The notes: generated by a model not told the origin, from the sequence alone. A stretch of DNA of 64,000 nt from Pseudomonadota bacterium (GCA_026399755.1 JAPLQI010000110.1:1603-65602), one strand, 5' to 3'. Positions 1-62,815 are shown, counted from the stretch's first letter. Made by a program: numbers and translations.

Positions 1-196
1 AAGCGGGGCGGGGTTTCGGCCAGGGAGCGAGGAACGAGCCAATCCCGCCTGCCGCTGACTCGATTGTCCGCAGCGCAGGGGCCTTCGTGTTTCGTGGGGC
101 GGCCTTCTTTGGCTTCGTTTCTTGGCCGTTCAAGAAAGGAAGGCCCCCGCGGTGGCAACCGCTCCAAAATCAACGTGCCGAAGGCACTAAAAAAAA
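1..196 (+). mobile_element. MITE-like dispersed element, copy A (cut by window edge)
   Basis: Core matches copies at 5503, 7340, 20066, 40984, 41186 and 62393; ends in the GTGCC-GAA-GGCAC hairpin at 175-187. Confidence 0.85.
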
Positions 197-218
197 CGAT
201 TTAGATTTACACACAACA

Positions 219-270
219 TGCAACCCACCACTGTTGCACTACTCCCTCCCCACTGTTGCAAATTGCAACA
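219..270. promoter_or_regulatory. Candidate enhancer-binding-protein upstream activator sites
   Basis: Two palindromes, TGCAAC-N8-GTTGCA (219-238) and TGTTGCA-AAT-TGCAACA (254-270), about 155-200 bp upstream of a sigma54-type promoter. Confidence 0.5.
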
Positions 271-422
271 CCAGTAAGCAAATAAACGGAATGAAATATA
301 CCCTAAGTGCTTGTAAACAAGAAAAATAATGCCTCTAGTGTATCTCGCACTGCAATATACAAACTATTTACGCCAGCTTTCACTACGATTTCACCCATAT
401 TGCACCGCATCATCAAACTCGC

Positions 423-439
423 CCGGCACACTTTCTGCT
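423..439 (+). promoter_or_regulatory. sigma54 -24/-12 promoter
   Basis: CCGGCACACTTTCTGCT, with GG (425-426) and GC (437-438) at the canonical 12-nt offset, 50 nt before the ALDH start. Confidence 0.65.
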
Positions 440-488
440 GATACCCGTGTACGCGGGCAAAACGCCCCTCTACCTTCAGGAGATAAGC

Positions 489-2009
489 ATGAGTGCATTG
501 ATTCCAGGCCAGTATGGTTTTCCACTGCAATTAAAATCGCGCTACGCCAACTATATCAATGGCGAATGGCATGCACCGCTGGCTGGGCAATACTTTGAAA
601 ACATCAGCCCCATCACCGGCAAGGTGATTTGCGAAATCCCGCGCTCTGACGCTACTGATATCGAAATGGCGCTCGACGCCGCCCACGCAGCCAAAGGCGC
701 TTGGGGCAAAACATCGACCACCGAACGCGCCAATATCCTGAATAAAATTGCCGACCGTATCGAGGCCAATCTAGACATGTTGGCCACGGTAGAAACATGG
801 GATAACGGCAAGCCGATTCGTGAAACCCGCGCTGCTGATTTACCCTTAGCCATCGATCACTTCCGCTATTTTGCTGGGGCGATTCGGGCGCAGGAAGGCA
901 GCATTGGCCAAATCGATAACGATACCGTGGCCTATCATTTTCATGAGCCGCTAGGCGTGGTGGGGCAGATTATTCCGTGGAATTTCCCGCTGCTAATGGC
1001 AACATGGAAGCTGGCCCCAGCGCTGGCTGCCGGTAATTGCGTAGTACTCAAGCCTGCCGAACAAACACCGCTCAGCATTTTAGTGTTGATGGAAGTGATC
1101 GGCGATTTACTGCCCAAAGGCGTGCTCAATATCGTTAACGGCTTTGGCTTAGAGGCAGGCAAGCCACTGGCCTCCAGCTCGCGTATCGCCAAAATCGCCT
1201 TCACGGGCGAGACCACCACCGGCCGCTTAATCATGCAATATGCGGCGCAAAACCTGATTCCGGTGACGCTAGAGCTGGGTGGCAAATCGCCGAATATCTT
1301 TATGCCCGATGTGATGAAGCACGACGATGCTTTCTTTAATAAGGCCATCGAAGGCTTTGTGATGTTTGCGCTCAACCAAGGCGAAGTCTGCACCTGCCCT
1401 AGCCGCGCACTGATTCATGAATCCATTTATGACGCCTTTATGGACCGCGCACTGACTCGCGTAGCCGCGATTAAGCAAGGCAATCCGCTGGATGCCAGTA
1501 CCATGCTCGGCGCGCAATCGTCTATGGAGCAAATGGAGAAAATCAGCGCTTACTTAGATATCGGCAAGCAAGAAGGCGCAAAAGTATTGGCAGGCGGCGC
1601 ACGTGCAACGCTGGCGGGGGAATTAGCGGGCGGCTATTACATCCAGCCAACTGTTTTCCAAGGCCATAATAAGATGCGGATTTTCCAAGAAGAAATCTTC
1701 GGCCCCGTGGTTTCTGTGACCACCTTTAAAGACGAAAACGAAGCTTTAGAAATCGCCAACGATACGCTCTATGGCCTAGGTGCTGGCCTGTGGACGCGGG
1801 ACACGCATGCTGCTTATCGCATGGGCCGCGAAATTCAAGCGGGCCGAGTATGGACCAACTGCTACCACGCCTACCCCGCCCATGCGGCCTTCGGCGGTTA
1901 CAAGCAATCGGGCATAGGGCGTGAAAACCACAAAATGATGCTCGATCACTACCAGCAAACCAAAAACCTATTGGTGAGCTACAGCCCGGATGCTTTAGGG
2001 TTTTTCTAA
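489..2009 (+). CDS. aldB: NAD-dependent aldehyde dehydrogenase (AldB/ExaC/AcoD type)
   Basis: Motifs [16 protein letters not shown], catalytic Cys in [15 protein letters not shown]; start moved to ATG 489 behind the AGGAG RBS. Confidence 0.93.
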
Positions 2010-2056
2010 GCAAAGTGCTGCCTGAGTAAGATCAAGCAACTCAGCAACGAAACTAA

Positions 2057-2088
2057 CCCCTCCCCTTTTGGGGAGAGGTTGGGGAGAG
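2057..2088. repeat. CCCCTCCCC...GGGGAGAGG palindromic repeat
   Basis: CCCCTCCCCTTTTGGGGAGAGGTTGGGGAGAG; related tract at 20386-20420. Confidence 0.5.
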
Positions 2089-2094
2089 TGATTC

Positions 2095-2427
2095 ATGAAT
2101 ATGCAAGTTACCGCCACCCCAGCAGCACTTGCCTTAATTAAAACACTGGAAGCCAAGTATGGCCCCTTGATGTTTCATCAATCAGGCGGTTGTTGCGATG
2201 GCAGCTCGCCTATGTGCTTTCAGGCCGGGGAACTCATTATTGGTGACAGCGATGTACTGCTGGGTGAAATTGGCGGCATGCCTTTTTATATGGGCGCGGC
2301 ACAATTTACTTACTGGCAACATACTCAATTAATTATTGATGTAGTGGCAGGGCGAGGCGGAATGTTCTCTTTAGAGGGCGCAACAGGCTTACGCTTTTTA
2401 ACTCGCTCTAAATTTTGCCCCATATAA
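2095..2427 (+). CDS. DUF779 family protein
   Basis: HQSGGCCDGSSPMC motif; the family is typically found next to AldB-type ALDH genes. Confidence 0.88.
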   Translation: MNMQVTATPAALALIKTLEAKYGPLMFHQSGGCCDGSSPMCFQAGELIIGDSDVLLGEIGGMPFYMGAAQFTYWQHTQLIIDVVAGRGGMFSLEGATGLRFLTRSKFCPI

Positions 2428-2548
2428 TCAAATAAAAAATATTTACATACCTCAATATATTTTTATGAAAAAAGATAAATAACCTAAATCATAAAGCAAT
2501 TGCTAAAATATAAGGATTAATCATCACTCCCAATCACCGAGATTATCA

Positions 2549-3556
2549 ATGCTCTCCAATCTGCGCTTTTTTAGAAGCTCCTTCATCGTCACGGTGCTTG
2601 GTTTAGCCGCCGCCTACTGGTTAGGCGGCCCTAAGGCCATGTTTATTGCCGCCATTTTATCGGTATTAGAAGTGTCCCTTTCTTTTGATAATGCAGTTGT
2701 TAATGCAACTGTACTGAAAGACATGGATGCCGTTTGGCGCAAACGCTTTATGACTTGGGGTATGCTCATTGCCGTGTTTGGGATGCGCGTTATTTTTCCC
2801 GTACTGATTGTAGCCGTCATTGCACACCTCAGCCCTTGGGCTGCTTTAATGATGGCAGTCAGCCAGCCAGAACAATACGCCACCGCTTTAACCTCATCTC
2901 ATATCATGGTGGCAGGCTTTGGTGGTGCATTTTTAATGATGGTGTTTTTAAAGTTCTTTTTTGACCAAGATAAAGAGGTTCACTGGTTACATATTGTTGA
3001 ATCACCTTTGGTTAAAATGGGCAAAATGGGTGGAATTGAAATTGGCATTTGCCTTATTCTTGCCTACGTTTTTTCTACTCAACTTAATAATGCCGAACAG
3101 CTTAGTTTTATTTTAGCGTCTATTATCGGGATTGTGACTTATATTGTTGTTGATGGTTTGGGTTCATTATTAAGTAGTGAAGAAAACCATGGCCAAACAA
3201 CCGTAGTTAGAACAGGTTTCTCCGCATTTATGTATTTAGAAGTACTCGATGCAAGCTTTAGTTTTGATGGTGTAATTGGTGCATTTGCCCTATCAAATAA
3301 TATTTTCATTATTGCGATTGGTTTAGGTATTGGCGCGATGTTTGTTCGCTCACTCACCATTATGTTTGTTGAAAAAGAAACACTTGATCAATTTAGATAT
3401 CTGGAACACGGTGCATTTTATGCAATTGGTGCACTGGCCTTTATTATGTTTATTGGTACATTCCATGAAATCCCAGAAGTCATTACCGGCTTAATAGGTG
3501 CGGGCTTAATTGGTATTTCTTTACTTGCATCGCTGAATTACAATAAAAAAAATTAA
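2549..3556 (+). CDS. DUF475 / TerC-like integral membrane protein
   Basis: Multiple hydrophobic helices; LEVSLSFDNAVVNA and LDASFSFDGVIGAFA motifs. Confidence 0.88.
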   Translation: MLSNLRFFRSSFIVTVLGLAAAYWLGGPKAMFIAAILSVLEVSLSFDNAVVNATVLKDMDAVWRKRFMTWGMLIAVFGMRVIFPVLIVAVIAHLSPWAALMMAVSQPEQYATALTSSHIMVAGFGGAFLMMVFLKFFFDQDKEVHWLHIVESPLVKMGKMGGIEIGICLILAYVFSTQLNNAEQLSFILASIIGIVTYIVVDGLGSLLSSEENHGQTTVVRTGFSAFMYLEVLDASFSFDGVIGAFALSNNIFIIAIGLGIGAMFVRSLTIMFVEKETLDQFRYLEHGAFYAIGALAFIMFIGTFHEIPEVITGLIGAGLIGISLLASLNYNKKN

Positions 3557-3570
3557 TTAAAATAAAAACT

Positions 3571-3600
3571 AAAAAAGGCGATATTTATATCGCCTTTTTT
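3571..3600. terminator. Intrinsic terminator (symmetric)
   Basis: AAAAAAGGCGATAT-TT-ATATCGCCTTTTTT, 15 nt after the stop codon. Confidence 0.85.
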
Positions 3601-3801
3601 ATTGCTTACTATAAGACATCGCATCCACTTTTTAAGCATCATCACCAATAAATTTCAAAAAACTTACCAACAGCAAGAAAAAACTTTCAAAAAGCCGTAC
3701 AAAAAAACAATCCGCTTATCAGCTTACTTAAATAATTGGTTTTAAATAAATAAAAACAGTCGTACATTTCAAAGGTCATTCTGACCAAACAAGTGAATAT
3801 C

Positions 3802-5418
3802 ATGAAAGTTAAGAATAAGCTAATGTTGCTCTCAGGCAGCCTGATTAGTATTATTTTAATGCTTACTGCGCTTAGCCTGTCTTGCCTAGAAAGTGGCTCT
3901 AAAAACTTCCAAACCACGATTGCAGATCGGGTTATGCCATTAGTGCAGCTAAAAAGCGTCTCCGATATGTACGCCATTAATATCGTCGATACCGTACACA
4001 AAATCACCAATGGCAGCCTTAGCCCCGTAGCGGGCTTAGAGAATGTAAGGACGGCGCGAAAAACCATCCAAGAAGAATGGCAAATTTATAAAAACACCGA
4101 GCTCACCCCCGAAGAAAACAGGCTGGTGCAACTGGCCGATAAAAGTATGATTCCTGCCGCAACTAGCTTTGATCAACTCGAAAAATTATTAGAGAGCCGC
4201 AATTTTGGCGCGCTCAATGAATATGCCGCTACCACGCTTTACCAGAGCGTTGATCCTATTACCGATGCGGTAGATAAGCTCATTAAATTGCAGCTGAATG
4301 TGGCCAAAGATAATTTAGAAGCATTCAAACAAAGCCATCATCAAGCCATCTTAGGCGGCGCGCTATTTGTACTAATTGCTACCCTTTCAGGTATTTTTCT
4401 TACCATTTGGATCATCCGCTCCTTACTTAAGGACTTAGGTGGAGAGCCAAGCGATATGCGCTCTGCAGCCACACGGATCTCCGAAGGCGATTTGGCCTCG
4501 CCGGTGCATGTGCCCAGTAATATGCGAGATAGCTTGGCTGGCGCAATGGAATCGATGCGCACCCAATTATCTGCACTCGTAGAAAACATTCAAAACTCCT
4601 CCACTCAGCTTGCCACCGATGCGGCACAAACCCGCAGCAGCAGCCAAGAAGTACACGAATCAGCAGGGGAGCAAAGCGATGCCGCCGCCAGAATGGCTGC
4701 CGCTGTAGAAGAATTATCGACCGGCATGGCCCATCTAAAAGATTATTCAAGCTATGCCTATGAAGTAGCTAGCAACTCTGGTCTACAGGCAGAGCAAGGA
4801 GCGCAAGCCTTGGAGGAGCTCACCAAAGAGATGCAAATCGTCTCTGATAGCGCCCATATCGTCACCGATACCGTAAACAACCTTGAAGAACACAGCGCCA
4901 GCATTGGCCGAGTCGCTCGTGTGATTCAGGATATTGCCGAACAAACCAATCTACTCGCTCTGAACGCCGCCATTGAAGCAGCCCGAGCAGGCGAACAAGG
5001 CCGTGGCTTTGCTGTGGTAGCCGATGAAGTGCGCAAATTGGCCGAGCGCACCACCCAAGCCACTCGAGAAATCCAAGAGACGCTAGGCACCATCACCAGT
5101 ACCACTCACGATGCTGCGAGCAATATGCGTAACAGCCTAAGCCAAACCGAGCTGGCTTTGGAGCATGCCCATCGCAGCAGCGAAATGCTGGTGCTAATCA
5201 AAAAAAGTGCTGTAGAAACCAAAGATGCCATGGCCAAAATCACCGATGCCCTAGCCGAGCAAAACACCGCAGGCCAAGAGATCGCCGTGAATGTGCAATT
5301 AATTGCCGTGATGACCGAGCGCTCATTCTCTGCGTCTAAAGAAATCAATATCGCCGTGGACAATAACGCCCAGCTAGCGCAAACACTGAGGTTGGCGGCG
5401 GTACGGTTTAGTTGTTGA
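3802..5418 (+). CDS. Methyl-accepting chemotaxis protein (4HB-type periplasmic sensor, HAMP, MA domain)
   Basis: Two TM segments; [40 protein letters not shown] signature; start is 3793 (GTG) or 3802 (ATG). Confidence 0.93.
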
Positions 5419-5426
5419 AGGCGTTT

Positions 5427-5470
5427 ACAAACAACAATGGCCGCGAATATTCGCGGCCATTGTTGTTTGT
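5427..5470. repeat. Perfect 44-bp palindrome, probably a terminator between convergent genes
   Basis: ACAAACAACAATGGCCGCGAAT followed directly by its exact reverse complement. Confidence 0.8.
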
Positions 5471-5502
5471 AGGAGTGTTGAGTCACTGGGCGGGTACAAC
5501 CG

Positions 5503-5835
5503 CATTGTGCTAACCACAAGACAAAAAGACCTTCTGAGTGCCTTCGGCACGTTGTATTTTGGTGCGGGATCCCCGCGAAGTATTTGATTTCTGCTTCGCC
5601 AAGAAAGTAAGTAAAGAAGGCGACCCCACGAAACACGAAGGCCCCTTCGCTGCGGACAATCGAGTCGGCGGCGGTCGGGATTGGCTCGTTCCTCGCTCCC
5701 TGGCCGAAACCCCGCCCCGCTTGTTCCTCGCTACGGCGTTTTTCAAGGGGATTTTAAAAAGCCCTGTGCAAAGAGCGTGGTTGTTATGCTTTTTCGCTGT
5801 TTTCTAATGAAAAAACAATTTGCTTAGCTTGTATG
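5503..5835 (-). mobile_element. MITE-like element, copy B (near full length)
   Basis: Degenerate 17-bp terminal inverted repeats at 5503-5519 and 5819-5835; core 5538-5764; REP-core-like flanks. Confidence 0.85.
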
Positions 5836-5886
5836 TGGTGGAACCTGCCAAGCTTTGCCACAACCTGCTACAACCTGCTACAAAAA

Positions 5887-5908
5887 CGGTGGGTTTCACC
5901 CACCCTAC
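5887..5908 (-). repeat. GTAG-type REP
   Basis: Reverse complement is GTAGGGTGGGTGAAACCCACCG. Confidence 0.8.
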
Positions 5909-5964
5909 GGTAATTCAATGATTGCGCAGCAGGTCGCTCAATCAAAAAATGCTCCCGAAACGTC

Positions 5965-7203: not shown

Positions 7204-7260
7204 AAAGCCCAAATCTTGAAACACGGAGGACACAGAGAACACGGAGTTTCACGGAGAAAA
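7204..7260 (+). repeat. CACGGAG 9-mer family repeat
   Basis: CCCAAATCTTGAA followed by four CAC(G/A)GAG units; other copies at 18355, 18630, 31821, 31893, 40845. Confidence 0.85.
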
Positions 7261-7339
7261 CTATGAAATAAATAAAGCCCTATTCTTTAAGTTGTCAGCA
7301 TTCTCAAACCTGATAATCTGGGTTTTCATCACGGCTCGT

Positions 7340-7590
7340 AGCATGGGGCTTAAATCCCCCCTGAAGCCGCGACACGAGGAATAAGCGGGGCGGGGTTTCG
7401 GAAAAGGGCTAGCGAGGCAGCGAGCGAGCAGCCTTTTTCACCGAGCCGATTATCCGCAGTGAGGGGCCTTCGTGCTTTTGAGGTTGCGATTTTGCTTCCT
7501 TTCTTGGCCGTTCAAGAAAGGGACTCCCGCACCAAAATCAACGTGCCGAAGGTACTAATAAAAGCCTTTTTGACTTTGTTCAGCACCTAA
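7340..7590 (+). mobile_element. MITE-like element, copy C (degenerate)
   Basis: Diverged core; right terminal repeat TTTGTTCAGCACCTAA at 7575-7590 abuts a REP core. Confidence 0.75.
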
Positions 7591-7651
7591 GGGCTAAAAC
7601 CCGCGTATTTCTACATTAAAAAAGCAAATACGCGGGTTTCACCCGCCCTAC
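7591..7651. repeat. REP doublet (REPIN)
   Basis: AAACCCGCGTATTT...AAATACGCGGGTTTCACCCGCCCTAC. Confidence 0.85.
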
Positions 7652-7674
7652 AAATGCCCAAGGCGCAGCCCCCC

Positions 7675-12853: not shown

Positions 12854-12937
12854 TTACAGGTGCAGCGTGATTTGTGGCCTCAGCTCATCAAAGGTACGGC
12901 TATTGCCAATTTCACCGATGGCGTGCATTTTCCACTC
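12854..12937 (-). repeat. Diverged tandem duplicate of the last 84 nt of terZ
   Basis: Aligns with 12944-13027 with 8 substitutions; period 90 nt. Confidence 0.95.
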
Positions 12938-12943: not shown

Positions 12944-13525
12944 TTACAGGTGCGGTGTAATTTGCGGCATCAGTTCATCAAAGGTACGGCCATTACCAAT
13001 TTCACCGATGGCGTGCATTTTCCACTCATTATTATGACGATATAGCTTGGCCATAATTTGTGCATTGTGCGAGCCCAGTGCGGACAGGTTGAAACGAGCG
13101 ACTTCTTTATTGTCATTCGCGTTCAGGATACGGCAAGTGGCATTGGCAATTTGCGAGAAATTCTGACCAGTGAAGCTATTCACCGTGAAGACCAAGCTTT
13201 TAACGTTGGCAGGCACGCGGCTCAGATCAACCACAATTTGCTCATCATCGCCATCGCCTTCACCAGTGCGATTGTCACCAGTATGCGTTACCGAGCCATC
13301 TTTAGATTTCAGCTGGCGAAACCATACAGCATCAATTGGATGATTTTGCTCATCAAACAAGATGCAAGACGCATCTAAGTCGATATCAGGTGCGCTGCCG
13401 CCAAAGCCCAAGAAACCTTTAGACTTCACCGCATCCCAGGCAAGGCCCATGATGATTTTGCTTAATGTAACGCCAGCCTCTTTATCGAGGGAAATCTTTT
13501 GGCCTTTTTCTAGGTTAATCGCCAT
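12944..13525 (-). CDS. terZ: TerZ-type TerD-family protein
   Basis: KGFLGFGG insert, IDLDASC, GDNRTGEGDGDDE, FTVNSF; AAGGAG RBS before ATG 13525. Confidence 0.85.
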   Translation of the reverse strand: MAINLEKGQKISLDKEAGVTLSKIIMGLAWDAVKSKGFLGFGGSAPDIDLDASCILFDEQNHPIDAVWFRQLKSKDGSVTHTGDNRTGEGDGDDEQIVVDLSRVPANVKSLVFTVNSFTGQNFSQIANATCRILNANDNKEVARFNLSALGSHNAQIMAKLYRHNNEWKMHAIGEIGNGRTFDELMPQITPHL

Positions 13526-13550
13526 GCTGTACTCCTTGATGGTGGGTATT

Positions 13551-13775
13551 GTAGGGCGGGTAAAACCCGCCAATGAGGACATGAAATACTAGGAAAACGG
13601 CGGGTTTCACCCAAGCCTATCAACTTAGCCATATGCCATGACATGGCTACACCATGGTAAATATTGAATCATCATAGGGCGGGTGAAACCCGCGTATTTC
13701 TCAGCATTGCTCGCGGGTTTCACCCGCCCTACGAATAACGTTTTACTTACGTTGATAGGACTGGGGTTATCCGCC
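13551..13775. repeat. BIME-like REP mosaic (two REP doublets plus linkers)
   Basis: REP pairs at 13551-13620 and 13674-13732; linkers shared with 33976-34135 and 55772-55830. Confidence 0.85.
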
Positions 13776-13803
13776 AAACAAAGCCCGTTAAGTCAGTTTT
13801 AAT

Positions 13804-15870: not shown

Positions 15871-16446
15871 TTAAGCGCTAATACCGAAAGAACGTGCTAA
15901 GGGGCCTAAGCCACCTGCAAAGCCTTGGCCTACCGCTTTGAATTTCCACTCTGCGCCAGCACGGTAGATTTCACCGAAGATCATGGCTGTTTCTGTTGAG
16001 CTGTCTTCTGATAAATCATAACGTGCGATTTCTTTATCGCCATTGGCATCAAGGCAGCGGATATACGCTTTGCCTACCATACCAAAGTTTTGCTTACGTG
16101 CTTCGGCATCATGAATCGTCACGCCAACGGTGATTTTTTCGATGTCCGCAGGCACTAAAGCCAAATCAATCACAATTTTTTCATCGTCGCCATCGCCTTG
16201 GCCGCTGGTGTTGTCACCCGCGTGGGTTACTGAGCCATCGGTTGATTTCAAGTTATTGTAAAAAATGAAATCTGAATCAGCGCGAACCTTGCCATCTGCT
16301 TTCAACAGAAAAGCACTGCCGTCCAAATCGAAGGCCGAACCATCGGTAGCGCGTGGATCCCAACCTAGACCAAGTACCAACTTTTTGAGGGAAGGCGCTT
16401 CTTTACTTAAATTGACGTTACCGCCTTTTTGTAGACTAATAGCCAT
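15871..16446 (-). CDS. TerD/TerE family protein
   Basis: [28 protein letters not shown]. Confidence 0.92.
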
Positions 16447-18354: not shown

Positions 18355-18688
18355 AAGCCCAAATCTTGAGATCTAAAACCCAAATCTTGAACCACGGAGT
18401 TTGGGAGGACACGGAGGGCCACGGAGAAAACCTTTAGGGGGTATCACTAAAGAAAAAAACATAACAAAAAGATGTTTTTCATAGGGTGTGCAAGTCGCTT
18501 TTCTTGCGCACCGCCCTTTTGCGCTCCGACTGCGTCGTTGTACACCCTATAAAAACTGATTCGTTCCATGACAAAAGTGAATCGCGCATGAACGCGTGGG
18601 CATAAAAACCTACCCACCCTACATTACTAGGTTTTCTCCGTGAAACTCCGTGTTCTCTGGGACCGAAGAGGTTCAAGATTTGGGTTTT
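18355..18688. repeat. Nested repeat composite: inverted CACGGAG pair enclosing GTAG-type REPs
   Basis: Outer arms 18355-18430 and 18630-18688; inner (A/G)TAGGGTG-type REPs at 18481-18622. Confidence 0.8.
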
Positions 18689-19984: not shown

Positions 19985-20065
19985 AGCAGTCTCATGTGTT
20001 CCCCGTGGAAGAGTCAGTAGCGGGGAGGTGTCATTTATAAGCAGTGGGCCTTGGGTTGCCCCCTC

Positions 20066-20379
20066 CATACGTACTAAGCAAAGTCTAAAAGATCTTTTTA
20101 GTGCCTTCGGCACGTTGATTTAGGTGCGGGCGTCCCGCGGGACCTTCCTTTCTTGTGTGGCCAAGAAACGAAGCCAAAGAAGGCCACCCCACGAAACACG
20201 AAGGCCCCTACGCTGCGGACAATCGAGTCGGCGGCAGGCGGGATTGGCTCGCTGCCTCGCTCCCTGGCCGAAACCCCGCCCCGCTTGTTTCAAGGGGAGA
20301 TTTAAGCCCCGTGTTGAGAGCGTAGTCGTCATCTTTTTTCTTTGTTTGCTACTCAGAATAAAATTGCTTAATACACATG
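20066..20379 (-). mobile_element. MITE-like element, copy D with target-duplication-like flanks
   Basis: Terminal repeats 20066-20082 and 20363-20379; flanks GGGTTGCCCCCTC (20053-20065) and GGGTTACCCCCTC (20380-20392). Confidence 0.85.
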
Positions 20380-20432
20380 GGGTTACCCCCTCTCCCAAAC
20401 TCCCCCCAGATGACAAGGGACTTTAAAAGCAA

Positions 20433-21518: not shown

Positions 21519-21577
21519 GTAGGGCGGGTGAAACCCGCGTATTTTTCAGCAGTGCTCGCGGGTTGCACCCGCCCTAC
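21519..21577. repeat. REP doublet (REPIN)
   Basis: GTAGGGCGGGTGAAACCCGCG...CGCGGGTTGCACCCGCCCTAC. Confidence 0.9.
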
Positions 21578-21581
21578 AACA

Positions 21582-22220
21582 TTACAGAACCAAATGAATT
21601 TCTGGTGGCGGAGGCGGCAAAGCCACGTCGTTAGCGACGCCCGCGCTGCTGCTGCCTACGGCGACACTGGCGGAAACCCATTTAAAAAATCCTGAAAACG
21701 CCGAGGCATCCAAGGTGTCTAGCGTGACGACACGATCAGTCAGTTCCAGCAAATATTCTTGCTTGGCCTTAGGGCCTGCGGCGCAAGCAATAATGGCCCC
21801 AAACTGACACTGCTTAATCGCTGGGATTGCTTGCCTATAAGCATGCAGATCAGACGGGCTGCCATCGGTCATTAAAAACATCAGCGGCCGCCAGTCGCCT
21901 TTTTCATCCTCACTACTCTTTTGCACATCACGCTCTAGGCACTCAAGCAGCAGCTCCAATGCCGCCCCCATAAAGGTGGCTCCGGCATTCGGGGAACTCA
22001 CATCATGCAGCTGCACATCAGCCAGCGGCGTTAAAGGCAGGTATTCGCGCGCCTCTAAATCAAAAGTAATAATTGATAGCGCCACGCTTTCTAAAGCATA
22101 AGGATCTTGCCGAAGTGCGCTGAGCATGGCTTGCAAGCCCACATTCACCGAATGAATGGGCTCGCCACGCATGGAGCCTGAGGTATCAAGAAGGATGTAA
22201 ACGGGAAGGCGTCTGCTCAT
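21582..22220 (-). CDS. terY: TerY vWA protein
   Basis: RRLPVYILLDTSGSM, DPYALESV, GDWRPLMFLMTDG. Confidence 0.9.
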   Translation of the reverse strand: MSRRLPVYILLDTSGSMRGEPIHSVNVGLQAMLSALRQDPYALESVALSIITFDLEAREYLPLTPLADVQLHDVSSPNAGATFMGAALELLLECLERDVQKSSEDEKGDWRPLMFLMTDGSPSDLHAYRQAIPAIKQCQFGAIIACAAGPKAKQEYLLELTDRVVTLDTLDASAFSGFFKWVSASVAVGSSSAGVANDVALPPPPPEIHLVL

Positions 22221-23094: not shown

Positions 23095-23673
23095 TTAGCT
23101 TGCAGAAATACCAAACTGTGCACAAAGAGGGCCAAGGCCGCCTGCAAAGCCCTGACCTACTGCTTTGAATTTCCACTCGGCATTATGGCGGTACACTTCA
23201 CCAAAAATCATAGCCGTTTCGGTGCTGTAATCTTCGGATAAATCAAAGCGTACGATTTCTACATTGTTATCCAGATTCACCACGCGCATAAACGCGTCTT
23301 TCACCTGACCAAAGTTTTGCTTGCGTGCCTCAGCATCATGAATGGTGACGCACACGGCTACTCGCATAATCTCTGCAGGCACATTTTCTAAATTGATTTT
23401 TAGCGCTTCATCATCACCGTCGCCAGCACCTGTACGATTGTCGCCAGTGTGCTCAACAGAGCCGCAGCTCGATTTTAATTGGTTGTAAAAAATGAAATCT
23501 GCATCGCCACGTACTTTGCCATTTTCCCCAAGCAAAAAGGCCGTTGCATCTAAGTCAAAAGCCGCGCCATCAGTAGAACGCGCATCCCAACCCAAGCCCA
23601 ACAAAATTGATTTAAGACCTGGCTCTGTTTTAGATAAAGAAAGATTGCCGCCTTTGTTTAATGAAATAGCCAT
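23095..23673 (-). CDS. terD: Tellurium resistance/stress protein TerD
   Basis: [24 protein letters not shown], ends CAQFGISAS; AAAGGA RBS. Confidence 0.9.
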
Positions 23674-31772: not shown

Positions 31773-31950
31773 TATAGGGTGTACAACAACGCAGTTGTTG
31801 CGCACCGAGATTCCTAAACAAAAACCCAAATCTTAAACCACGGAGGAAAGGGAGAACACGGAGGGTCACGGAGAAAAACACAAGGAAAGCAAGGTTTTCT
31901 CCGTGAAACTCCGTGTTCTCTGTGCCCTCCGTGTTTCAAGATTTGGGTTT
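31773..31950. repeat. GTAG-type REP plus inverted CACGGAG doublet
   Basis: REP 31773-31806; arms 31821-31878 and 31893-31950 are reverse complements. Confidence 0.85.
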
Positions 31951-32004
31951 TATCCCCCACACACATTTAAACGCGAAGCTGCACTCGCAAAAACAGAAGC
32001 ACAC

Positions 32005-33911: not shown

Positions 33912-34135
33912 GGCGGTTGCAACCCGCCGAGCTTTGCTATGAAATCCGAAAAACGGCGGGTTGCACCCGCCCTACGATGATTCAATGCTTGTTGATTGTG
34001 TGGTAACTCCATGACATTTAGCTAAGCCGATTGGATTGGGGTGAAACCTGCGTACTTTTGAGCATTGCTCGCGGGTTGCACCCGCCCTACGAATACCGTT
34101 TCTCTTAAGTGAATAGGATTGGATGTTACCCGTCC
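33908..34135. repeat. BIME-like REP mosaic
   Basis: REP pairs 33908-33975 and 34038-34090 with linkers shared with the 13.6 kb and 55.8 kb arrays. Confidence 0.85.
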
Positions 34136-40844: not shown

Positions 40845-40900
40845 AAACCCAAATCTTGAACCACGGAGTTCACAGAGAACACGGAGTTTCACGGAGAAAA
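40845..40900 (+). repeat. CACGGAG 9-mer family repeat
   Basis: Near-identical to 7204-7260. Confidence 0.85.
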
Positions 40901-40983
40901 ACAAGGCTTAAATTAAGTTGTTTTCTAGATTTTAAGTATTTAAAAAAACCAGCTATTAGAATTCGTATCGCAGCTCGTTGCAC

Positions 40984-41185
40984 GGGGCTTAAATTCCCCC
41001 TTGAAACACGCCGGAGTGAGGAACAAGCGGGGCGGGGGATCGCTTGGTAGCGAGGCAGCCGAGCCAATCCCGCCCGCCGCCGACTCGATTGTCCGTAGCG
41101 CAGGGGCCTTCGTGTTTCGTGGGGTAGCCTTCTTTGCTTACTTTCTTGGCGAAGCAAGAAAGTGAGGCCCACGCGGGAGATTCCC
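40984..41185 (+). mobile_element. MITE-like element, copy E (truncated)
   Basis: Core lacking the terminal hairpin, directly followed by copy F. Confidence 0.8.
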
Positions 41186-41490
41186 CATACGCGCTAACCA
41201 AATTGGTTTTCATTAGCAAACAGCGAAAAAGCATAACAACCACTCTCTTTGCATGGGGCTTTTTAAAGTCCCCTTGAAACACGCCGGAGCGAGGAACAAG
41301 CGGGGCGGGGTTTCGGCAAGGGAGCGAGGCACGAGCCAATCCCGCCCGCCGCCGACTCGATTGTCCGCAGCGAAGGAGCCTTCGTGTTTCGTGGGGTCGC
41401 CTTCTTTGGCTTCGTTTCTTGGCGAAGCAAGAAAGGAAGGCCCCGCGGTGGCTACCGCTCCAAAATCAACGTGCCGAAGGCGCTAAAAAG
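41186..41490 (+). mobile_element. MITE-like element, copy F
   Basis: Left terminal repeat CATACGCGCTAACCAAA (41186-41202), linker, full core ending GTGCCGAAGGCGC. Confidence 0.85.
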
Positions 41491-41513
41491 ACTCCCAAAA
41501 AAGGAATAACCCC

Positions 41514-42128
41514 ATGAGCATGACTATCTGGCTAACCTTTATTGCCACTACCTTTTTTATTTCCGCCACGCCCGGCCCTAATATGCTGCTGATGCTATCG
41601 CACGGCACACGTTATGGCTGGCAGGCGACGCTGGCTACCATGAGTGGGGCACTTATAGGATTGGCCTTATTGTTTGCGCTATCGGCCTTTGGCATGGCGA
41701 CTATCCTAGCCACTTCCGCCACGCTGTTTTTGATGTTTAAATTAGCCGGTGCGGTGTATTTAATTTATTTGGGCTGGCAATGTTTTAAAGCGGGGAGCAA
41801 TTTAGAAATGCCCAATTCCTCCGCCGACTCGGCAGCAAGGCGCTTTCGTTTGGGATTAACCGTGGCGCTATCTAATCCCAAGGCGATTTTATTTGCCGGA
41901 GCTTTCTTGCCGCAATTTATCAACACATCGCAACCACAAGCGGGACAATGGGCTATTTTGCTGGGCAGCTTTTTTATCATCGAAGCAGGCTGGCAAGTTG
42001 CCTACGCGGCTGGCGGCGCAAGGCTAGGTAACTGGCTACAAGGCCCGAATCGTATCAAGCGCTTTAACCAAGGCTGCGGCGCGGCTTTCTTTACCGTGGG
42101 TGGATTACTGGCAGTAGCGCAGCGCTGA
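41514..42128 (+). CDS. LysE/RhtB family exporter
   Basis: TPGPNMLL, GAVYLIYLG, LSNPKAILF. Confidence 0.92.
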   Translation: MSMTIWLTFIATTFFISATPGPNMLLMLSHGTRYGWQATLATMSGALIGLALLFALSAFGMATILATSATLFLMFKLAGAVYLIYLGWQCFKAGSNLEMPNSSADSAARRFRLGLTVALSNPKAILFAGAFLPQFINTSQPQAGQWAILLGSFFIIEAGWQVAYAAGGARLGNWLQGPNRIKRFNQGCGAAFFTVGGLLAVAQR

Positions 42129-55689: not shown

Positions 55690-55832
55690 CCTATCAACAG
55701 ATAGCGAAATGTTTTTTGTAGGGCGGGTGTAAGCCGAGAGCAATAAAATACGCGGGTTGCACCCGCCCTACGATGATTCAATGCTTGTCATTGCGTGGCA
55801 ACAACATGACATATAGCTAAATTGATAGGATG
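55690..55832. repeat. REP doublet with BIME-like linkers
   Basis: REP pair 55718-55771; downstream linker GATGATTCAATGCTTGT shared with 33976. Confidence 0.85.
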
Positions 55833-57573: not shown

Positions 57574-57689
57574 ATGGAATCAATCATCAGCGAAAATCAA
57601 AATGCAACTCTACAATAAGAGAGAAGCAAGAGCCGTCGCTGGGCTTGAGCCCACGCTAGACAGAGTTGATATCAACGAGGAATAAAACC

Positions 57690-57989: not shown

Positions 57990-57997
57990 AAAAATCC

Positions 57998-58037
57998 AAA
58001 AAAAAGGCAGCATATCTAAAATATGATGCCTTTTTTT
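57998..58037. terminator. Bidirectional intrinsic terminator
   Basis: A-tract GGCAGCATAT...ATATGATGCC T-tract between convergent genes. Confidence 0.75.
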
Positions 58038-58049
58038 AAAAGCAATCAA

Positions 58050-59114
58050 TTAAATTTTTTCTAGCTCTGTTCCACCACGCACCCAACTCCCCAGCAAAGC
58101 ATAACAAATGGCAAGTAAGGTAGGCCCTAAAAAGACGCCTAATAAACCAAACGCCAAAGCGCCACCCAATACGCCAAATAAAATCAAAATAAAGGGCAGA
58201 TCACTTTCTTTACCAATAAAGAGCGGCTTCACTACATTATCTGCCGTGCCCACCACCAAGATCATCCAGAGCGCTAGGAAAATAGCCCAACCTGTATGGC
58301 CTTGATAATAAAGCCAAGCCGCTGCTGGCAAGCCAATAAGCCCTGGGCCACCTGGCAATATAGAAAGAAAGCAACTTGCAAAGCCCAAGGTTAATGAATT
58401 AGGCACACCCGCAATAAAGAAACTAAACCAAGCTAACAACCCTTGCACTAAAGCCGTCCCCAAAAAGCCATAAACGACGCCTCTTACCGTGCCAGTAGCC
58501 ACATTTAATAGCGATTCAGCTTTATCTCCTGCAATACGTCGCATCATCCCCTTTAACCACAAAGCCGCACTTTCACCATGTAGATAAAAGAAAAAAGCCA
58601 CCATTAAGCTTAAAGCCAATAATAAAAACCCGCCGCCAACAATACCGCCAAAACGCAGTAAACCCGATGCAATAGGGCCGCTTAAGCCACGTATCCGCTC
58701 CAATAAGGCAGGATCGCCTTGGCCTAGCTTTAGCCAAAAACCATTAATCCACTCGCCCAAATAAGGAAAGGTGCTGATCCAAGCAGGCAAAACAGGCCAT
58801 CCCACTTGAAATTGGTGGCTCACCGTTTTAATTAAGGAACCGGCTTGGCTGGCAAATTCAAACCCCGCCATCAAAAGGGGTAAAACCAAGAAGGTGAGTA
58901 AGCCGCTAATTAATAGAAGTGCACCAACAAAACGGCTACCTCTACAAAGCTTCACAATCCATTGATAGGGCTTCCAAGTGGTGTAGACCAAAATGGCAGC
59001 CCAAATAACAGAAGCTAAAAATGGGGCCATAATCATTAAGCCCAACCAAATCAAAGCCCCCATCGCCAGAATTGCGGCGAGAGGTTCGATTAAATCAGAA
59101 CTACGTATACGCAT
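58050..59114 (-). CDS. AI-2E (PerM) family transporter
   Basis: Multiple TM helices, DNVVKP, GVFLGP. Confidence 0.88.
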   Translation of the reverse strand: MRIRSSDLIEPLAAILAMGALIWLGLMIMAPFLASVIWAAILVYTTWKPYQWIVKLCRGSRFVGALLLISGLLTFLVLPLLMAGFEFASQAGSLIKTVSHQFQVGWPVLPAWISTFPYLGEWINGFWLKLGQGDPALLERIRGLSGPIASGLLRFGGIVGGGFLLLALSLMVAFFFYLHGESAALWLKGMMRRIAGDKAESLLNVATGTVRGVVYGFLGTALVQGLLAWFSFFIAGVPNSLTLGFASCFLSILPGGPGLIGLPAAAWLYYQGHTGWAIFLALWMILVVGTADNVVKPLFIGKESDLPFILILFGVLGGALAFGLLGVFLGPTLLAICYALLGSWVRGGTELEKI

Positions 59115-59355
59115 ATTTACTCGCCTTTAACCTCCCAAATGGGCGTTGTTAGCATACCCGTAAAAATAGTAATTGACCGCTATAAATTACCTAGAATAAG
59201 GGTGTTTTTAACTATTTTAATCGCTATCAGAATATTCTTACCGAAAAGATAAGACCTTCATCACAAAGCATTTTTCAATATAAGCATACGACATAAACTC
59301 ATTAAGCTAAGTAAGCCCAACTCCCACCAAAAAATAGCTGATAGCAAAATGTAAC

Positions 59356-59658
59356 TTAGTCATGATAAAGATAAGAAAAATCTTTGGATTGGGCAATTAA
59401 TCCAGAAACAATCACGGCCGCCTCATTGCGACCAGCGATAGAATTAATTGCTTCATCACATTCTTCTAATGCAGCATGAACGTCACAAGCTAAATGAAAC
59501 AAGATTGTTTTTTCCTTCAAAGGCGCCATCGGCAGATAATAGTTAATTTCATCAACAATATGATCAGCTAGCTCATTAGAATATTGCGCGGGAGATGACA
59601 AAATACGCTCATATAAACGCACGCCGATCACACCAAGTGCAAGCAGCTGGGTGGGCAT
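59356..59658 (-). CDS. Hypothetical 100-aa protein
   Basis: AGGAG RBS before ATG 59658; open frame; no family recognised. Confidence 0.7.
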   Translation of the reverse strand: MPTQLLALGVIGVRLYERILSSPAQYSNELADHIVDEINYYLPMAPLKEKTILFHLACDVHAALEECDEAINSIAGRNEAAVIVSGLIAQSKDFSYLYHD

Positions 59659-59750
59659 GATGTAACTCCTATTCAATAAGTATTAATCCACTTTAGCCCC
59701 ATCTAAACTGATCACTCACACCTCCCGTCGGATGGCAATTCAGTAGAGAT

Positions 59751-59770
59751 CCAAACATATAGATGTTTGG
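59751..59770. promoter_or_regulatory. Candidate operator
   Basis: Perfect inverted repeat CCAAACAT-ATAG-ATGTTTGG upstream of the hypothetical gene. Confidence 0.45.
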
Positions 59771-59933
59771 TCTATTCAGCACAAAAAAACACAAAATAAT
59801 ATAAATATTGGCATATTAAAACAACAATAAAACATTTGTTGATACAAAAACTTAATCGTGGCGGCTGTCGTAAATTTTCACAGCAAAGCCGATTAGCGAG
59901 TCATTCTAAGCAACTAGAGCATTTCACATTAGC

Positions 59934-60998
59934 TCAGCGTTTTTTCTCATACCACGGCTTGCTACGATTAACGATATTGACGACGAGCAGCATCACCGGC
60001 ACTTCAATCAGCACACCCACCACCGTTGCCAAAACAGCACCGGAGTGAAAGCCAAATAAGCTAATCGCTGCGGCCACCGCTAATTCAAAAAAGTTGGATG
60101 CGCCAATCAAGGCCGAAGGGCCTGCGATATTGTGCTTTTCACCCACAGCACGGTTAAGCAAATAGGCAAGGCCTGAGTTAAAAAACACTTGGATTAAAAT
60201 CGGTACGGCCAATAGAGCGATAATTAAAGGCTGTTTCAAAATCGCCTCGCCTTGAAAGGCAAACAACAGCACTAAGGTGGCGAGTAATGCCGTAATCGAC
60301 CATGGCCCAATTTTGGACATCGCCGCATCAAATACCGCTTGGCCTTTGCTTAATAAAGATTTGCGCAAGATTTGCGCGATGATTACTGGAATCACAATAT
60401 ATAAAACCACCGAAGTAATCAGCGTATCCCACGGTACAATAATTGCCGACATCCCGAGTAAAAACGACACCAGCGGTGCAAAAGCCACCACCATAATGGC
60501 GTCGTTTAAGGCCACTTGTGACAGCGTAAATAAGGGATCGCCCTTGGTGAGCTTGCTCCAAACAAACACCATCGCAGTGCAGGGTGCGGCTGCAAGTAAA
60601 ATTAATCCGGCAATATAGCTATCAATTTGCTCGGCAGGTAAATAAGGGGCAAACCATTGCCGAATAAATAGCCATGCCAAAAACGCCATCGAAAACGGCT
60701 TAACCAACCAATTAATAAACAGTGTTACGCCAATGCCACGGAGATGTTTACTCACCTCGCCAAGGGCTGAAAAATCCACCTTGATCAGCATCGGGATGAT
60801 CATAATCCAGATCAACAGCCCCACAGGCAGGTTCACTTTGGCGACTTCCATGCTGCCAATGGCCTGAAATACCGCTGGCCAATACTGGCCTAGGCCGATC
60901 CCCAGCAAAATACACGCAAAGACCCAGAGCGTGAGGTAGCGCTCAAATACGCTCATCGATGCACTGGGTGCGCGGCTGACTTCACATTGAACAGACAC
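59934..60998 (-). CDS. acr3: Acr3-family arsenite efflux transporter
   Basis: FERYLTLWV, AAPCTAMVFVW, SNFFELAVA, GVLIEVPVML; GAGGA RBS before GTG 60998. Confidence 0.93.
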   Translation of the reverse strand: MSVQCEVSRAPSASMSVFERYLTLWVFACILLGIGLGQYWPAVFQAIGSMEVAKVNLPVGLLIWIMIIPMLIKVDFSALGEVSKHLRGIGVTLFINWLVKPFSMAFLAWLFIRQWFAPYLPAEQIDSYIAGLILLAAAPCTAMVFVWSKLTKGDPLFTLSQVALNDAIMVVAFAPLVSFLLGMSAIIVPWDTLITSVVLYIVIPVIIAQILRKSLLSKGQAVFDAAMSKIGPWSITALLATLVLLFAFQGEAILKQPLIIALLAVPILIQVFFNSGLAYLLNRAVGEKHNIAGPSALIGASNFFELAVAAAISLFGFHSGAVLATVVGVLIEVPVMLLVVNIVNRSKPWYEKKR

Positions 60999-61141
60999 GG
61001 GTTTTCTTCCTCTAAGTAACACAGTTTTGGGCTAACCCTTTAAGACTGGCCCAATGATGGCGATGCATGCGTCTTAGATCTGCACGCGAGGTCGGGCGTT
61101 AAATCGGGCAATCACAGTCGTCACTATTTTTATAAATTTCG

Positions 61142-61173
61142 ACTATACAATAACATTTGAAATATTGTATAGT
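61142..61173. promoter_or_regulatory. Candidate ArsR-type operator in the divergent acr3/gap promoter
   Basis: Perfect 11-bp inverted repeat ACTATACAATA-N10-TATTGTATAGT. Confidence 0.55.
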
Positions 61174-61289
61174 TATTCTTACCAGATCAGAAATCAAAGC
61201 CTGTACGGAAAAAAGCACCGGCAAATTCAACCTCTTAATATTTGTACCGGCAAGCTGCGCTTCGATGAAATGAGTCAAAAGGAAGAAAA

Positions 61290-62300
61290 ATGAGTATCAA
61301 AGTAGGTATTAACGGCTTTGGCCGCATCGGCCGTTTAACGCTGCGCGCAGCTTGGGGCTGGCCTGATATTGAGTTTGTGCAGATCAACGATCCGGCTGGC
61401 GACGCGGCCACCTTGGCGCATTTGCTTAACTTTGATTCGGTACACGGCCGCTTTGCGCATAATGCTGAAGCGATCAATGATGAAATTGTGATTGGCGAGC
61501 AGCGGATTAAAGTCAGCCACAATAAGGCGATTGGCGACACCAATTGGTCGGGCTGCGATGTGGTGATCGAAGCATCGGGCAAGATGCGTAAAGTGGAATT
61601 GCTACAAGCCTATCTGGATCAAGGTGTTAAACGCGTGGTGGTCACTGCACCCGTTAAGGAAGCAGGTGTTTTGAATGTGGTAGTAGGAGTGAATGATCAT
61701 CTTTATGATCCAGCCCAGCACCACATTGTGACTGCCGCCAGCTGCACCACCAATTGCTTGGCCCCCGTGGTAAAAGTGATTCACGAGCAGATCGGCATCC
61801 GTCACGGCAGCATGACCACCATTCATGATCTAACCAATACCCAAACCATTATCGACGCGCCGCACAAAGATCTGCGCCGCGCCCGTTCTTGCGGCACCAG
61901 TCTGATCCCCACTTCAACCGGATCGGCCACCGCCATTACTGAGATTTTCCCCGAGCTTAAAGGCCGCTTAAACGGCCATGCTGTGCGCGTGCCTTTAACC
62001 AACGCATCGCTCACCGATTGTGTATTCGAGCTAGAACGCGCCACCACCGTTGAGGAAGTCAACGGCCTGCTTAAAGCCGCATCCGAGACTTACCTGAAAG
62101 ATATTTTGGGCTATGAAGAGCGCCCACTGGTATCGATCGACTACCGAGGCGACGCGCGCTCATCCATCATCGACGCGCTCTCCACCATGGTGATCAACGG
62201 CACGCAGCTCAAGCTCTACGCTTGGTACGACAATGAATGGGGCTATGTGAATCGCACGGCAGAGTTGGTGAGGCTGGTTGGGCAAGATTTGTCCGTATGA
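61290..62300 (+). CDS. gap: ArsJ-associated glyceraldehyde-3-phosphate dehydrogenase
   Basis: [24 protein letters not shown]; directly upstream of arsJ. Confidence 0.93.
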
Positions 62301-62308
62301 ACAAGCTG

Positions 62309-62815
62309 TGTCTATTAGGCGAGCGGGCTCACTCGGTGTACATCAAGTTATGCGTTGCAAATATTGAATCATCGTAAGGCGGGTGAAACACTATATGCGC
62401 TAACCAAAGTCAAAAAGACCTTTTTAGTGCCTTCGGCACGTTGCTTTTGGGCGGTTAGCCACCGCGGGGCCTTCCTTTCTTGCTTCGCCAAGAAACGAAG
62501 CCAAAGAAGGCGACCCCACGAAACACGAAAGCCCCTGCGCTGCGGACAATCGAGTCGGCGGCGGGCGGGATTGGCTCGTTCCTCGCTCCCTGGACTTTAA
62601 AGCCCTATGCAGAGTGCGTAGTCATTACGTTTTTCGCTGTTTGCTAATGAAAAAGCAATTTGGTTAGCACGTATGGGTTTAACCCGCCGAGTTCATCATT
62701 TTGCACCAAAGCTCGGCGGGTTTAACCCGCCCTACAAAAGATGCAATACATACCATTGTATTTAACTTAATACCTATAGGCACAGACGTGCCCACCCGAC
62801 TCTTTTGGACCGCTC
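62309..62815. repeat. Composite of REP linkers, MITE copy G and a REP doublet between gap and arsJ
   Basis: REP 62374-62390, element 62393-62675, REP doublet 62671-62735, decayed REP near 62777-62797. Confidence 0.8.
62393..62675 (-). mobile_element. MITE-like element, copy G (internal deletion)
   Basis: Terminal repeats ATATGCGCTAACCAAA (62393-62408) and TTTGGTTAGCACGTAT (62659-62674), 14 of 16 matching. Confidence 0.85.

Follow-up and report, generated by a model that had tools for sequence, protein, structure and literature searches.

Studied members of the IS4 family of insertion sequences (ISs) encode cut-and-paste transposases of the DDE type. IS186, a close relative of IS421, uses GGGG(N6/N7)CCCC as its target, and IS231A inserts into GGGNNNNNCCC, a GGG(N)5CCC sequence, with an 11-bp duplication. 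MIC231 elements are non-autonomous units that are bounded by IS231 ends, hold unrelated content and are moved in trans. The IS231 subgroup has ends of the form CAT-------AA--TAA and 10-12-bp repeats (De Palmenaer 2008), and was reported to be almost restricted to Firmicutes. Another IS4-family member, ISRm22 of Sinorhizobium meliloti, has all its copies at the symmetry axis of repetitive extragenic palindromes (REPs), and some of these copies have non-matching flanking repeats, which were ascribed to recombination between copies (Tobes & Pareja 2006). Here we analyzed 64 kb of DNA, one strand, from a Pseudomonadota bacterium (the window), in which a repeated element of about 330 bp is present in seven copies (c1-c7). 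The element is very probably a non-coding MITE (a miniature transposable element with inverted repeats) of Iodobacter that has IS4-family, IS186/IS421-like ends and inserts into GGG-N5-CCC palindromes. The family is apparently undescribed; it is of a known kind, and unusual only for its conserved, mosaic and highly structured core.

Ends, target duplication and insertion sequences with the same ends

A profile of the element was built from 84 copies and searched with nhmmer across about 730 kb of Iodobacter loci, which gave 131 copies with a median length of 333 bp (5-95%: 314-343); no copy had an insert or a gene. Ends and flanks were counted on 105 interior copies (window and loci L002-L091). 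An intact copy opens with CATRYGCGCTAASCAAA and a brief linker, which are followed by a GTGCC-TTCG-GGCAC hairpin and by the core, about 250 nt in length; a second linker (about 55 nt, TTTTTCGCTGTTTGCTAATGAAAAA...) then leads to the inverted end TTTGSTTAGCGCRYATG. The 17-bp terminal inverted repeats were present at both ends in 27 of the 105 copies, from which the consensus CATRYGCGCTAASCAAA was derived, in agreement with the 16-17-bp terminal repeat that the first-pass annotation of the window had proposed. One end was found in 25 copies and neither end in 53, of which 28 run into a 57-nt CACGGAG repeat on the right. Loss of an end, or of both, affects about half of the copies, and these are probably old insertions that no longer move.

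Among the 27 two-ended copies, the 11 bp outside CAT... and ...ATG were direct repeats of the form GGGT-NNN-ACCC, identical at 11/11 positions in 6 copies, at 10/11 in 3 and at 9/11 in 2. Because the stem of the REP is palindromic, only its asymmetric 3-nt loop reveals orientation. By our reading, the left and right loops agreed in polarity in all of the 13 copies that had a recognisable unit on each side, for which about 1 in 8000 would be expected by chance; this fits a target duplication and rules out two REPs in inverted orientation. Of the local REP, GTAGGGCGGGTGAAACCCGCC, the 5' part through ACCC stands to the left of the element, and on the right the sequence begins again at GGGT, so that one REP has been split and its central 11 bp duplicated. 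Thus the flanking repeat is the centre of the REP, as first suggested from the window, and the duplication is seen across related loci. The element was inserted in either orientation relative to the REP.

Insertion was also found at sites other than REPs. Copy c4 lies in a non-REP site with the same motif (GGGTTGCCCCC), and the 13-bp repeat on its two sides (20053-20065 and 20380-20392), noticed at the outset, was present with 12/13 identity. The second non-REP site is the element's own hairpin GCGGGAATCCCCCGC, which is a GGG-N5-CCC sequence and hence a target-type site, and this accounts for nested copies. Nesting at this hairpin was found twice: c6 is inserted in c5 (41175-41185), and one copy is inserted in another on plasmid pl1. 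Since the element occurs in its own hairpin and in non-REP sites, its specificity is for the GGG-N5-CCC motif and not for REPs as such. The earlier view that REPs are targeted therefore held in that the duplication is the REP centre, but it is the motif that governs and other sites are used as well. The REP centre being the commonest form of GGG-N5-CCC, most intact copies split a REP.

An 11-bp duplication at GGG-N5-CCC and CAT-type ends predict a partner of the IS4 family. A metagenome scan for CCC followed by the end sequence returned 37 contigs, among which ten elements of 1.36-1.41 kb were bounded by the same 17 bp, inverted. The IS with matching ends that the first-pass annotation had asked for was thereby found, and it is of the IS4 family. 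In three of these ISs, open reading frames (ORFs) of 370-376 aa matched NF033592 'IS4 family transposase' (NCBIfam) at 149-154 bits (cutoff 115 bits) and Pfam DDE_Tnp_1, and the transposase was assigned by these two models. Four of these ISs were 57-80% identical to each other in DNA and 49-69% in protein, and their contigs spanned 46-60% G+C. In contig L117 (46% G+C), the IS lies among REP doublets like that at 13681-13781 of the window. A protein named 'IS4 family transposase [Iodobacter sp.]' was 97% identical to the L117 transposase, and its locus in GCA_025352645.1 (Iodobacter sp.) contained a 1377-bp IS, 96% identical to that of L117, which was inserted in a REP doublet and had CATGTGCGCTAACCAAA at both ends. 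Pseudomonas, Rhodoferax and Serratia have named transposases about 60% identical to that of L117.

Among named ISs in the plasmid collection, IS421 was nearest, with 34% protein identity. On E. coli pEntYN10, IS421 has the ends CATAAGCGCTAACTTAAGGGTTG and an 11-bp duplication, GGAATATCTCC, inside GGGG-N7-CCCC; its end CATAAGCGCTAACTTAA is identical to the MITE end at 14 of 17 positions, and the MITE end fits 7 of the 8 positions of the IS231-subgroup signature. The ends, the duplication and the target motif of the MITE are thus shown, as is an IS with the same ends and an IS4 transposase in an Iodobacter-like host. A search of the Iodobacter loci for further end sequences gave only chance matches within genes, and a search of viral contigs for the partner IS gave one truncated copy of the element and chance matches only. 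That truncated copy, a right end of 78 nt (L096:831-908, an IMG/VR contig from an isolate genome), stands at the end of a predicted prophage, so that here a different mobile region either cuts the element or lies beside it.

The original idea of a non-autonomous element mobilised in trans is supported by the ends, the duplication and the IS4-family IS with the same ends. We infer that the IS4 transposase moves the MITE by the mechanism of the studied members of the family. A DDE transposase made elsewhere would bind both 17-bp ends and insert the element at a GGG-N5-CCC palindrome. The two strands would be cut 11 bp apart, and these 11 bp would be duplicated on repair. The commonest site of this kind in Iodobacter is the centre of the REP stem-loop, GTAGGGC[GGGTGAAACCC]GCC.

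A second, unrelated MITE family with the same 17-bp ends was observed in metagenome contigs of 55-63% G+C (L101, L104, L111, L113, L120, L121, L124, L126, L128, L132, L133 and L137). Its complete copies are about 95-285 bp long (most 188-285 bp) and form a long palindrome, CATATGCGCTAACCAAACGTGTATTCGGAG...CCCTCCCTTTCAAGGGGAGGG..., inserted in REPs of the GTAGGGCGGGTGCAACCC type. Some of the contigs of 57-60% G+C from the partner scan carry this family. Some of its copies have mirror-image flanks like those of the ISs described below.

The distribution of the element was examined in species-representative genomes, where at least 90 stretches were found in at least 6 genomes. All matches listed were in Iodobacter (I. 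violaceini, I. arcticus, sp. BJB302 and sp. CM08) or in two metagenome-assembled genomes with contigs that show synteny to Iodobacter loci (about 80-94% identity). Iodobacter loci match the genes of the window at 84-90% identity. Four freshwater metagenomes contain the window organism, and in these the assembler depth over the core was 50-60 times that of the flanking genes, which suggests roughly 50-60 copies per genome. Copies are thus numerous across the genus. Copies were also found on plasmid pl1 of I. fluviatilis PCH194. Presence of the element differed between Iodobacter species at some sites, and many copies stood at orthologous sites in different species. Mobility of the element is suggested by its flanking duplications, by nesting, by the presence of copies on a plasmid and by these differences between species; nesting and plasmid carriage argue for movement in the past.

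The whole window had no match in Rfam 15 at gathering thresholds, and region 40850-41600 gave chance-level matches only at E<=10. No prior description was found in a review of MITEs from 2024 or in papers on Iodobacter, ISfinder being outside this coverage; the first impression that the family had not been described was consistent with these results. The element family fragments Iodobacter assemblies. It also yields spurious ORFs of 100 aa, and should therefore be masked in annotation, and it could serve as a marker for strain typing.

The core of the element and the explanations weighed

No conserved ORF was found in the element, and its longest ORFs had no Pfam match. The strand of the longest open frame varied among copies, and the lengths of modules differed by 1-2 nt, so that any reading frame is broken. 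A protein-coding core was rejected on these grounds, and the absence of a conserved ORF, already remarked in the window, extends to the family.

The structure of the core was analyzed on an alignment of 96 copies. RNAalifold gave almost no structure on the raw alignment and a closed multi-helix fold on the trimmed one. With a loop-to-downstream pairing added, the fold has 12 helices and 66 pairs, and 91.6% of the cells are paired. Both sides had changed in 23 of the 66 pairs (287 cells, against 95 +/- 10 in shuffles), and the covariation score was 0.134 in comparison with 0.03-0.05 when partners were slid; these values come from related copies and from a structure derived from the same sequences. 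Covarying long-range pairs were 198/321 (AU 47, GC 40) and 222/303 (CG 71, UA 23), and the loop-to-downstream pair 153/188 covaried as well (CG 51, UA 34). Neither strand was favoured: the helices contained 119 G-U and 160 A-C cells, and both strands folded about equally well.

Whole hairpins occurred in alternative, unrelated, self-complementary versions, for example GTCAATTC/GAATTGAC against AAAAGG/CCTTTT. At one orthologous site (L006 and L039), the ends were 96% identical but the cores only 68%. Such identical ends with diverged cores indicate that blocks are exchanged between copies, probably by gene conversion. The core is unrelated to the IS, and its base-paired fold is kept.

The GTGCC-TTCG-GGCAC hairpin is nearly invariant, and with its T-rich tail it scores as terminator-like; on the forward strand this is GTGCCTTCGGCAC followed by a T-rich tail, for example at 5538-5550 and 20101-20113 of the window. 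In tandem gene contexts the element was antisense to the genes in 38 cases and sense in 19, and divergent, promoter-bearing spacers were avoided (6 of 82 classified copies). Metatranscriptome contigs covered 20094-20289, a part of c4, at low depth and without strand information, and this coverage was no higher than DNA carry-over or read-through could give.

These data raise the possibility that the core acts as a functional, structured RNA or forms a DNA structure that the host uses, for example a module that stabilises, processes or terminates transcripts, with the ends as its vehicle only and selection keeping the copies. This would be compatible with the element being a MITE, and we regard it as a tentative alternative. 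The excess of both-side changes in the 12-helix fold, the covarying long-range and loop-to-downstream pairs, the invariant hairpin, the bias in orientation, the rarity in divergent spacers and the metatranscriptome contigs are consistent with it. Against it, G-U pairs are about as frequent as A-C, no transcribed strand stands out, both strands fold alike, and the structure was derived from the very sequences on which it was scored. Block exchange among related copies and template switching in palindromes can both imitate covariation, the latter making complementary arms without selection; the RNA coverage can be explained without expression, and there is no match in Rfam. We read the bias in orientation, the rarity in divergent spacers, the terminator-like hairpin and the RNA coverage as tolerance effects typical of intergenic repeats. 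It is somewhat more doubtful that the core is a selected multi-helix RNA or DNA module between IS186-like ends, kept uniform yet varied by gene conversion. Such a module would have 12 helices, perhaps a pseudoknot, and interchangeable hairpin variants, and would have spread through Iodobacter intergenic regions; if so, it would alter the termination or stability of neighbouring transcripts in a manner that depends on its orientation. Any selected function of the core is possible but rather unlikely.

The transposition of a short element between IS4-type ends was also weighed against two other ways in which it could have spread. In the first, intergenic mosaics composed of REPs, the CACGGAG repeat and the core would have recombined and been duplicated, with ends and duplications as by-products. 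This would suit the copies without recognisable ends, the 28 of 105 joined to another repeat, the exchange of cores and the many copies at orthologous sites. We consider it very improbable, because perfect 11-bp duplications coincide exactly with the CAT/ATG boundaries in a large number of unrelated places, an IS that encodes a transposase has identical ends, nesting occurs at a site that matches the target motif, and the length is uniform. A REPIN-like unit or a passenger between REPs, moved not by a DDE enzyme but by a REP-associated tyrosine transposase (RAYT), is more improbable still. The local REP does have the GTAG and palindrome form typical of RAYT-associated REPs, doublets are common, and a 234-aa protein of the Y1_Tnp type is encoded beside element copies on an Iodobacter plasmid. 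However, the flanks are the halves of one split REP with an 11-bp direct duplication and not two inverted REPs, the element has inverted ends of its own that are identical to those of an IS4-family IS, and it also occurs in non-REP sites, and the RAYT/REPIN explanation was therefore rejected. An element of the IS110 type was rejected on account of the 17-bp inverted ends, the 11-bp duplication and the DDE partner of the IS4 family.

Several results weigh against a MITE moved by an IS4-family partner. Neither end is recognisable in half of the copies (53 of 105). The homology between MITE and IS is limited to the terminal 17-19 bp, with none in the subterminal sequence of five ISs compared, so that the element is a cassette-type MITE and not a deletion derivative of the ISs seen, and the pairing of the two is drawn entirely from ends and target. 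At orthologous loci of different Iodobacter species, either both had the element or the whole intergenic region was replaced, and no clean pair of filled and empty sites was found among these loci or among metagenome contigs; when contigs from four metagenomes were compared with 20 kb of the window, they ended at repeats, and their joints were repeat artefacts. The interiors of the L117 and L135 ISs were essentially without depth in metagenome runs X1, X2, X3 and X6, which contain the window organism (at 85-90% likeness), whereas the REP flanks of L117:850-2340 and L135:520-2040 were deep. The MITE-rich population of the window organism seems to lack partner ISs of the L117/L135 type, and this strain may have none or use a more distant one. 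Finally, several full-length ISs have mirror-image and not direct flanks, which a simple 11-bp duplication does not explain.

Mirror-image flanks were observed at L117:903-2279, L135:575-1984, L129:542-1904, L138:2926-4302 and L132:1565-1752, the last being a small MITE with the same ends. They are perfect inverted repeats of 17-21 bp that continue the ends, with the REP loop flipped. L135 reads GTAGGGCGGGTGAAACCC, IS, GGGTTTCACCCGCCCTAC, which are the outer parts of one REP doublet with the centre missing, and in L117 and L138 the IS lies between two REP doublets, each of which lacks its IS-proximal 7 nt. The IS copies of L119 and L134 had normal duplications of 10-11 bp. Possible origins of the mirror-image flanks are recombination between copies whose REPs face opposite ways, the explanation put forward for ISRm22, a hairpin-stimulated deletion after normal insertion, and insertion into an extruded hairpin of a REP doublet.

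Copies in the window and neighbouring repeats

The 28-nt core pattern ACGAARGCYCCTN{2,3}CTRCGGAYAATCG had 7 matches in the window, which are the seven copies, and none in 100 shuffles. Repeat finding in both orientations linked 1-168, 5504-5835, 7355-7604, 20067-20251, 40997-41172, 41207-41490 and 62393-62675, and the seven copies could be aligned over about 300 nt. All seven reported by the first-pass annotation were thus recovered at or near the positions it gave; two of its ranges, 7340-7590 and 40984-41185, proved somewhat short and are now 7265-7591 and 40911-41185. All copies are intergenic, and their neighbours are ordinary chromosomal genes (aldehyde dehydrogenase, chemoreceptor, GGDEF/EAL protein, LysE-family exporter and GAPDH).

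Both ends were well kept only in c4 and c7. Copy c4 (20066-20379, + strand) has the ends CATACGTACTAAGCAAA (20066-20082) and ATTGCTTAATACACATG (20363-20379) and a 17-nt internal deletion; its target duplication on the + strand is GGGTTGCCCCCTC, which contains GGG-N5-CCC, on the left, and GGGTTACCCCCTC on the right. Copy c7 (62392-62675, + strand; 284 bp) has an internal deletion, the ends TATATGCGCTAACCAAA (62392-62408) and TTTGGTTAGCACGTATG (62659-62675), and flanks that are a split REP, GGCGGGTGAAACAC on the left and GGTTTAACCCGCC on the right. Copy c2 (5503-5835, + strand) is full length at 333 bp; its ends, CATTGTGCTAACCACAA on the left (5503-5519) and TTTGCTTAGCTTGTATG on the right (5819-5835), are both degenerate, and its flanks, GGGCGGGTACAACC and TGGTGGAACCTGCC, are REP-like.

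The other four copies are on the - strand. Copy c1 (1-220) is cut by the start of the window and covers profile positions 9-223 (nhmmer 214-1, 228 bits), with a degenerate left end, CATGTTGTGTGTAAATC, at about 220-204. Copy c3 (7265-7591) is a variant without a recognisable right end, and its right side adjoins the 57-nt CACGGAG repeat at 7204-7261; its left end, CTTAGGTGCTGAACAAA, is degenerate and adjoins half a REP. Copy c5 (40911-41185) breaks off at profile position 63, precisely where its own hairpin GGGAGATTCCC lies (41175-41185); this hairpin is a GGG-N5-CCC site into which c6 was inserted. Its right side has no recognisable end and adjoins the CACGGAG repeat at 40845-40905. Copy c6 (41186-41493) is nested in c5, and its right end (41186-41202, CATACGCGCTAACCAAA read on the + strand) adjoins the c5 hairpin; the left end of c6 has been lost, shortly ahead of the LysE-family gene that starts at 41514.

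The CACGGAG repeat is a 57-nt arm, AAACCCAAATCTTGAAACACGGAGG..CACGGAGTTTCACGGAGAAAA, with three CACGGAG motifs, and was found in the window at 7204-7261, 18631-18688, 31821-31951 and 40845-40905. At 31821-31951, two arms form an inverted pair, which makes a palindromic unit of 131 bp. Element copies that adjoin an arm on their right (28 of 105) are without recognisable ends. The REP family, GTAGGGCGGGTGAAACCCGC(C/G), often occurs as inverted, REPIN-like doublets with a 17-26-nt spacer, and is represented in the window at 13681-13764, 21526-21609, 34039-34122, 33949-33992, 55745-55788, 5882-5925 and 7625-7668. Related loci also carry a second REP type, GTAGGGTGGGTTAGGCC...GGCCGTAACCCACC. The 234-aa protein on plasmid pl1 of I. 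fluviatilis PCH194 has a weak IS200-like Y1 transposase domain (46.8 bits) and is of the size and type expected of a RAYT. It is encoded twice (L092:5004-5708 and L093:15797-16501), in a duplicated segment with a hipA toxin gene and element copies.

Two other repeats were observed in the window. Direct repeats of 84 nt at 12854-12937 and 12944-13027, 90 nt apart and 90% identical, overlap the end of an ORF at 12944-13582 (- strand), and segments 15902-16130 and 23129-23357 belong to paralogous genes and are 77% identical.

Relation to known systems

The targeting of REPs by this element would have a mechanistic explanation, in that the centre of the REP hairpin happens to be the GGG-N5-CCC palindrome preferred by transposases of the IS186/IS231 type, and the older target studies of IS231A and IS186 are thereby joined to the literature on REP targeting. 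The IS186-like group, known mainly from E. coli, is represented in Iodobacter, and in metagenome contigs of 46-60% G+C, by relatives whose ends are the same, and ISs with these ends gave rise to at least two unrelated MITE families. What would lift the element above the routine is the conserved, covarying, block-shuffled core and the mirror-image flanks of full-length ISs in REP doublets.

The element is short (MITEs being under about 600 bp) and without a conserved ORF, and it has inverted repeats, a target duplication, many copies and an autonomous IS with the same ends, which together place it among MITEs. The end signature, the 10-12-bp repeat between a G-run and a C-run, and the single-ORF DDE transposase of the partner place both in the IS186/IS421/IS231 group. 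This group, and not IS1397 (IS3 family, 3-bp repeats) or IS621 (IS110 family, no inverted ends), which the first-pass annotation had named, is the relevant precedent.

The likeness to IS186/IS421 of E. coli lies in the ends (14 of 17 positions, CATAAGCGCTAACTTAA and CATRYGCGCTAASCAAA) and in an 11-bp duplication within a palindrome of a G-run and a C-run. IS421 is 1339 bp long and the candidate partner IS, of similar size, 1.36-1.41 kb, and each encodes one DDE transposase. In contrast, the Iodobacter element has 330 bp and no transposase, that of the partner is only about 34% identical to the IS421 transposase, and the target is GGG-N5-CCC instead of the GGGG-N6/7-CCCC of IS186. No description of MITE derivatives of IS186 turned up in the literature, in which no systematic search was made. 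IS231A of the Bacillus cereus group has the same GGG(N)5CCC target, an 11-bp duplication and an end signature matched at 7 of 8 positions. However, IS231A and MIC231 belong to another host phylum and have no sequence relation to the Iodobacter element beyond that signature, and MIC231 carries genes, whereas the Iodobacter core is non-coding. ISRm22 is alike in being an IS4-family element that targets REPs and in having some copies with non-matching flanks; it differs in being autonomous, in its reported 6-bp repeats and in belonging to subgroup IS4Sa.

The other elements that target REPs are less similar. ISPpu9/10, ISPa11 and ISRm19 belong to the IS110 family and, unlike the Iodobacter element, have no inverted ends, and ISPsy8 is an IS3-family element with 3-bp repeats. 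Elements of the IS110 type such as IS621 and ISPpu9/10 have no inverted repeats, a duplication of 0-2 bp and a DEDD transposase with a guide RNA, in all of which the element differs from them. REPINs occupy the genomes and intergenic niches in which the element is found, and single REPs and REP doublets physically enclose it; however, a REPIN consists of two inverted REPs without other ends or a target duplication, whereas here a single REP is split and 11 bp are duplicated.

Among structured MITEs, whose transcripts in bacteria form stable folds and can act on termination, on processing or on the stability of mRNA, Correia/NEMIS (Neisseria), ERIC, RUP/BOX and QMITE2 are likewise short, intergenic and multi-copy and have inverted ends. 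They fold mainly as one long hairpin of inverted halves and have duplications of 2-9 bp, whereas the Iodobacter element, which has no sequence similarity to them, has short ends, an 11-bp duplication and a 250-nt multi-helix core with alternative modules.

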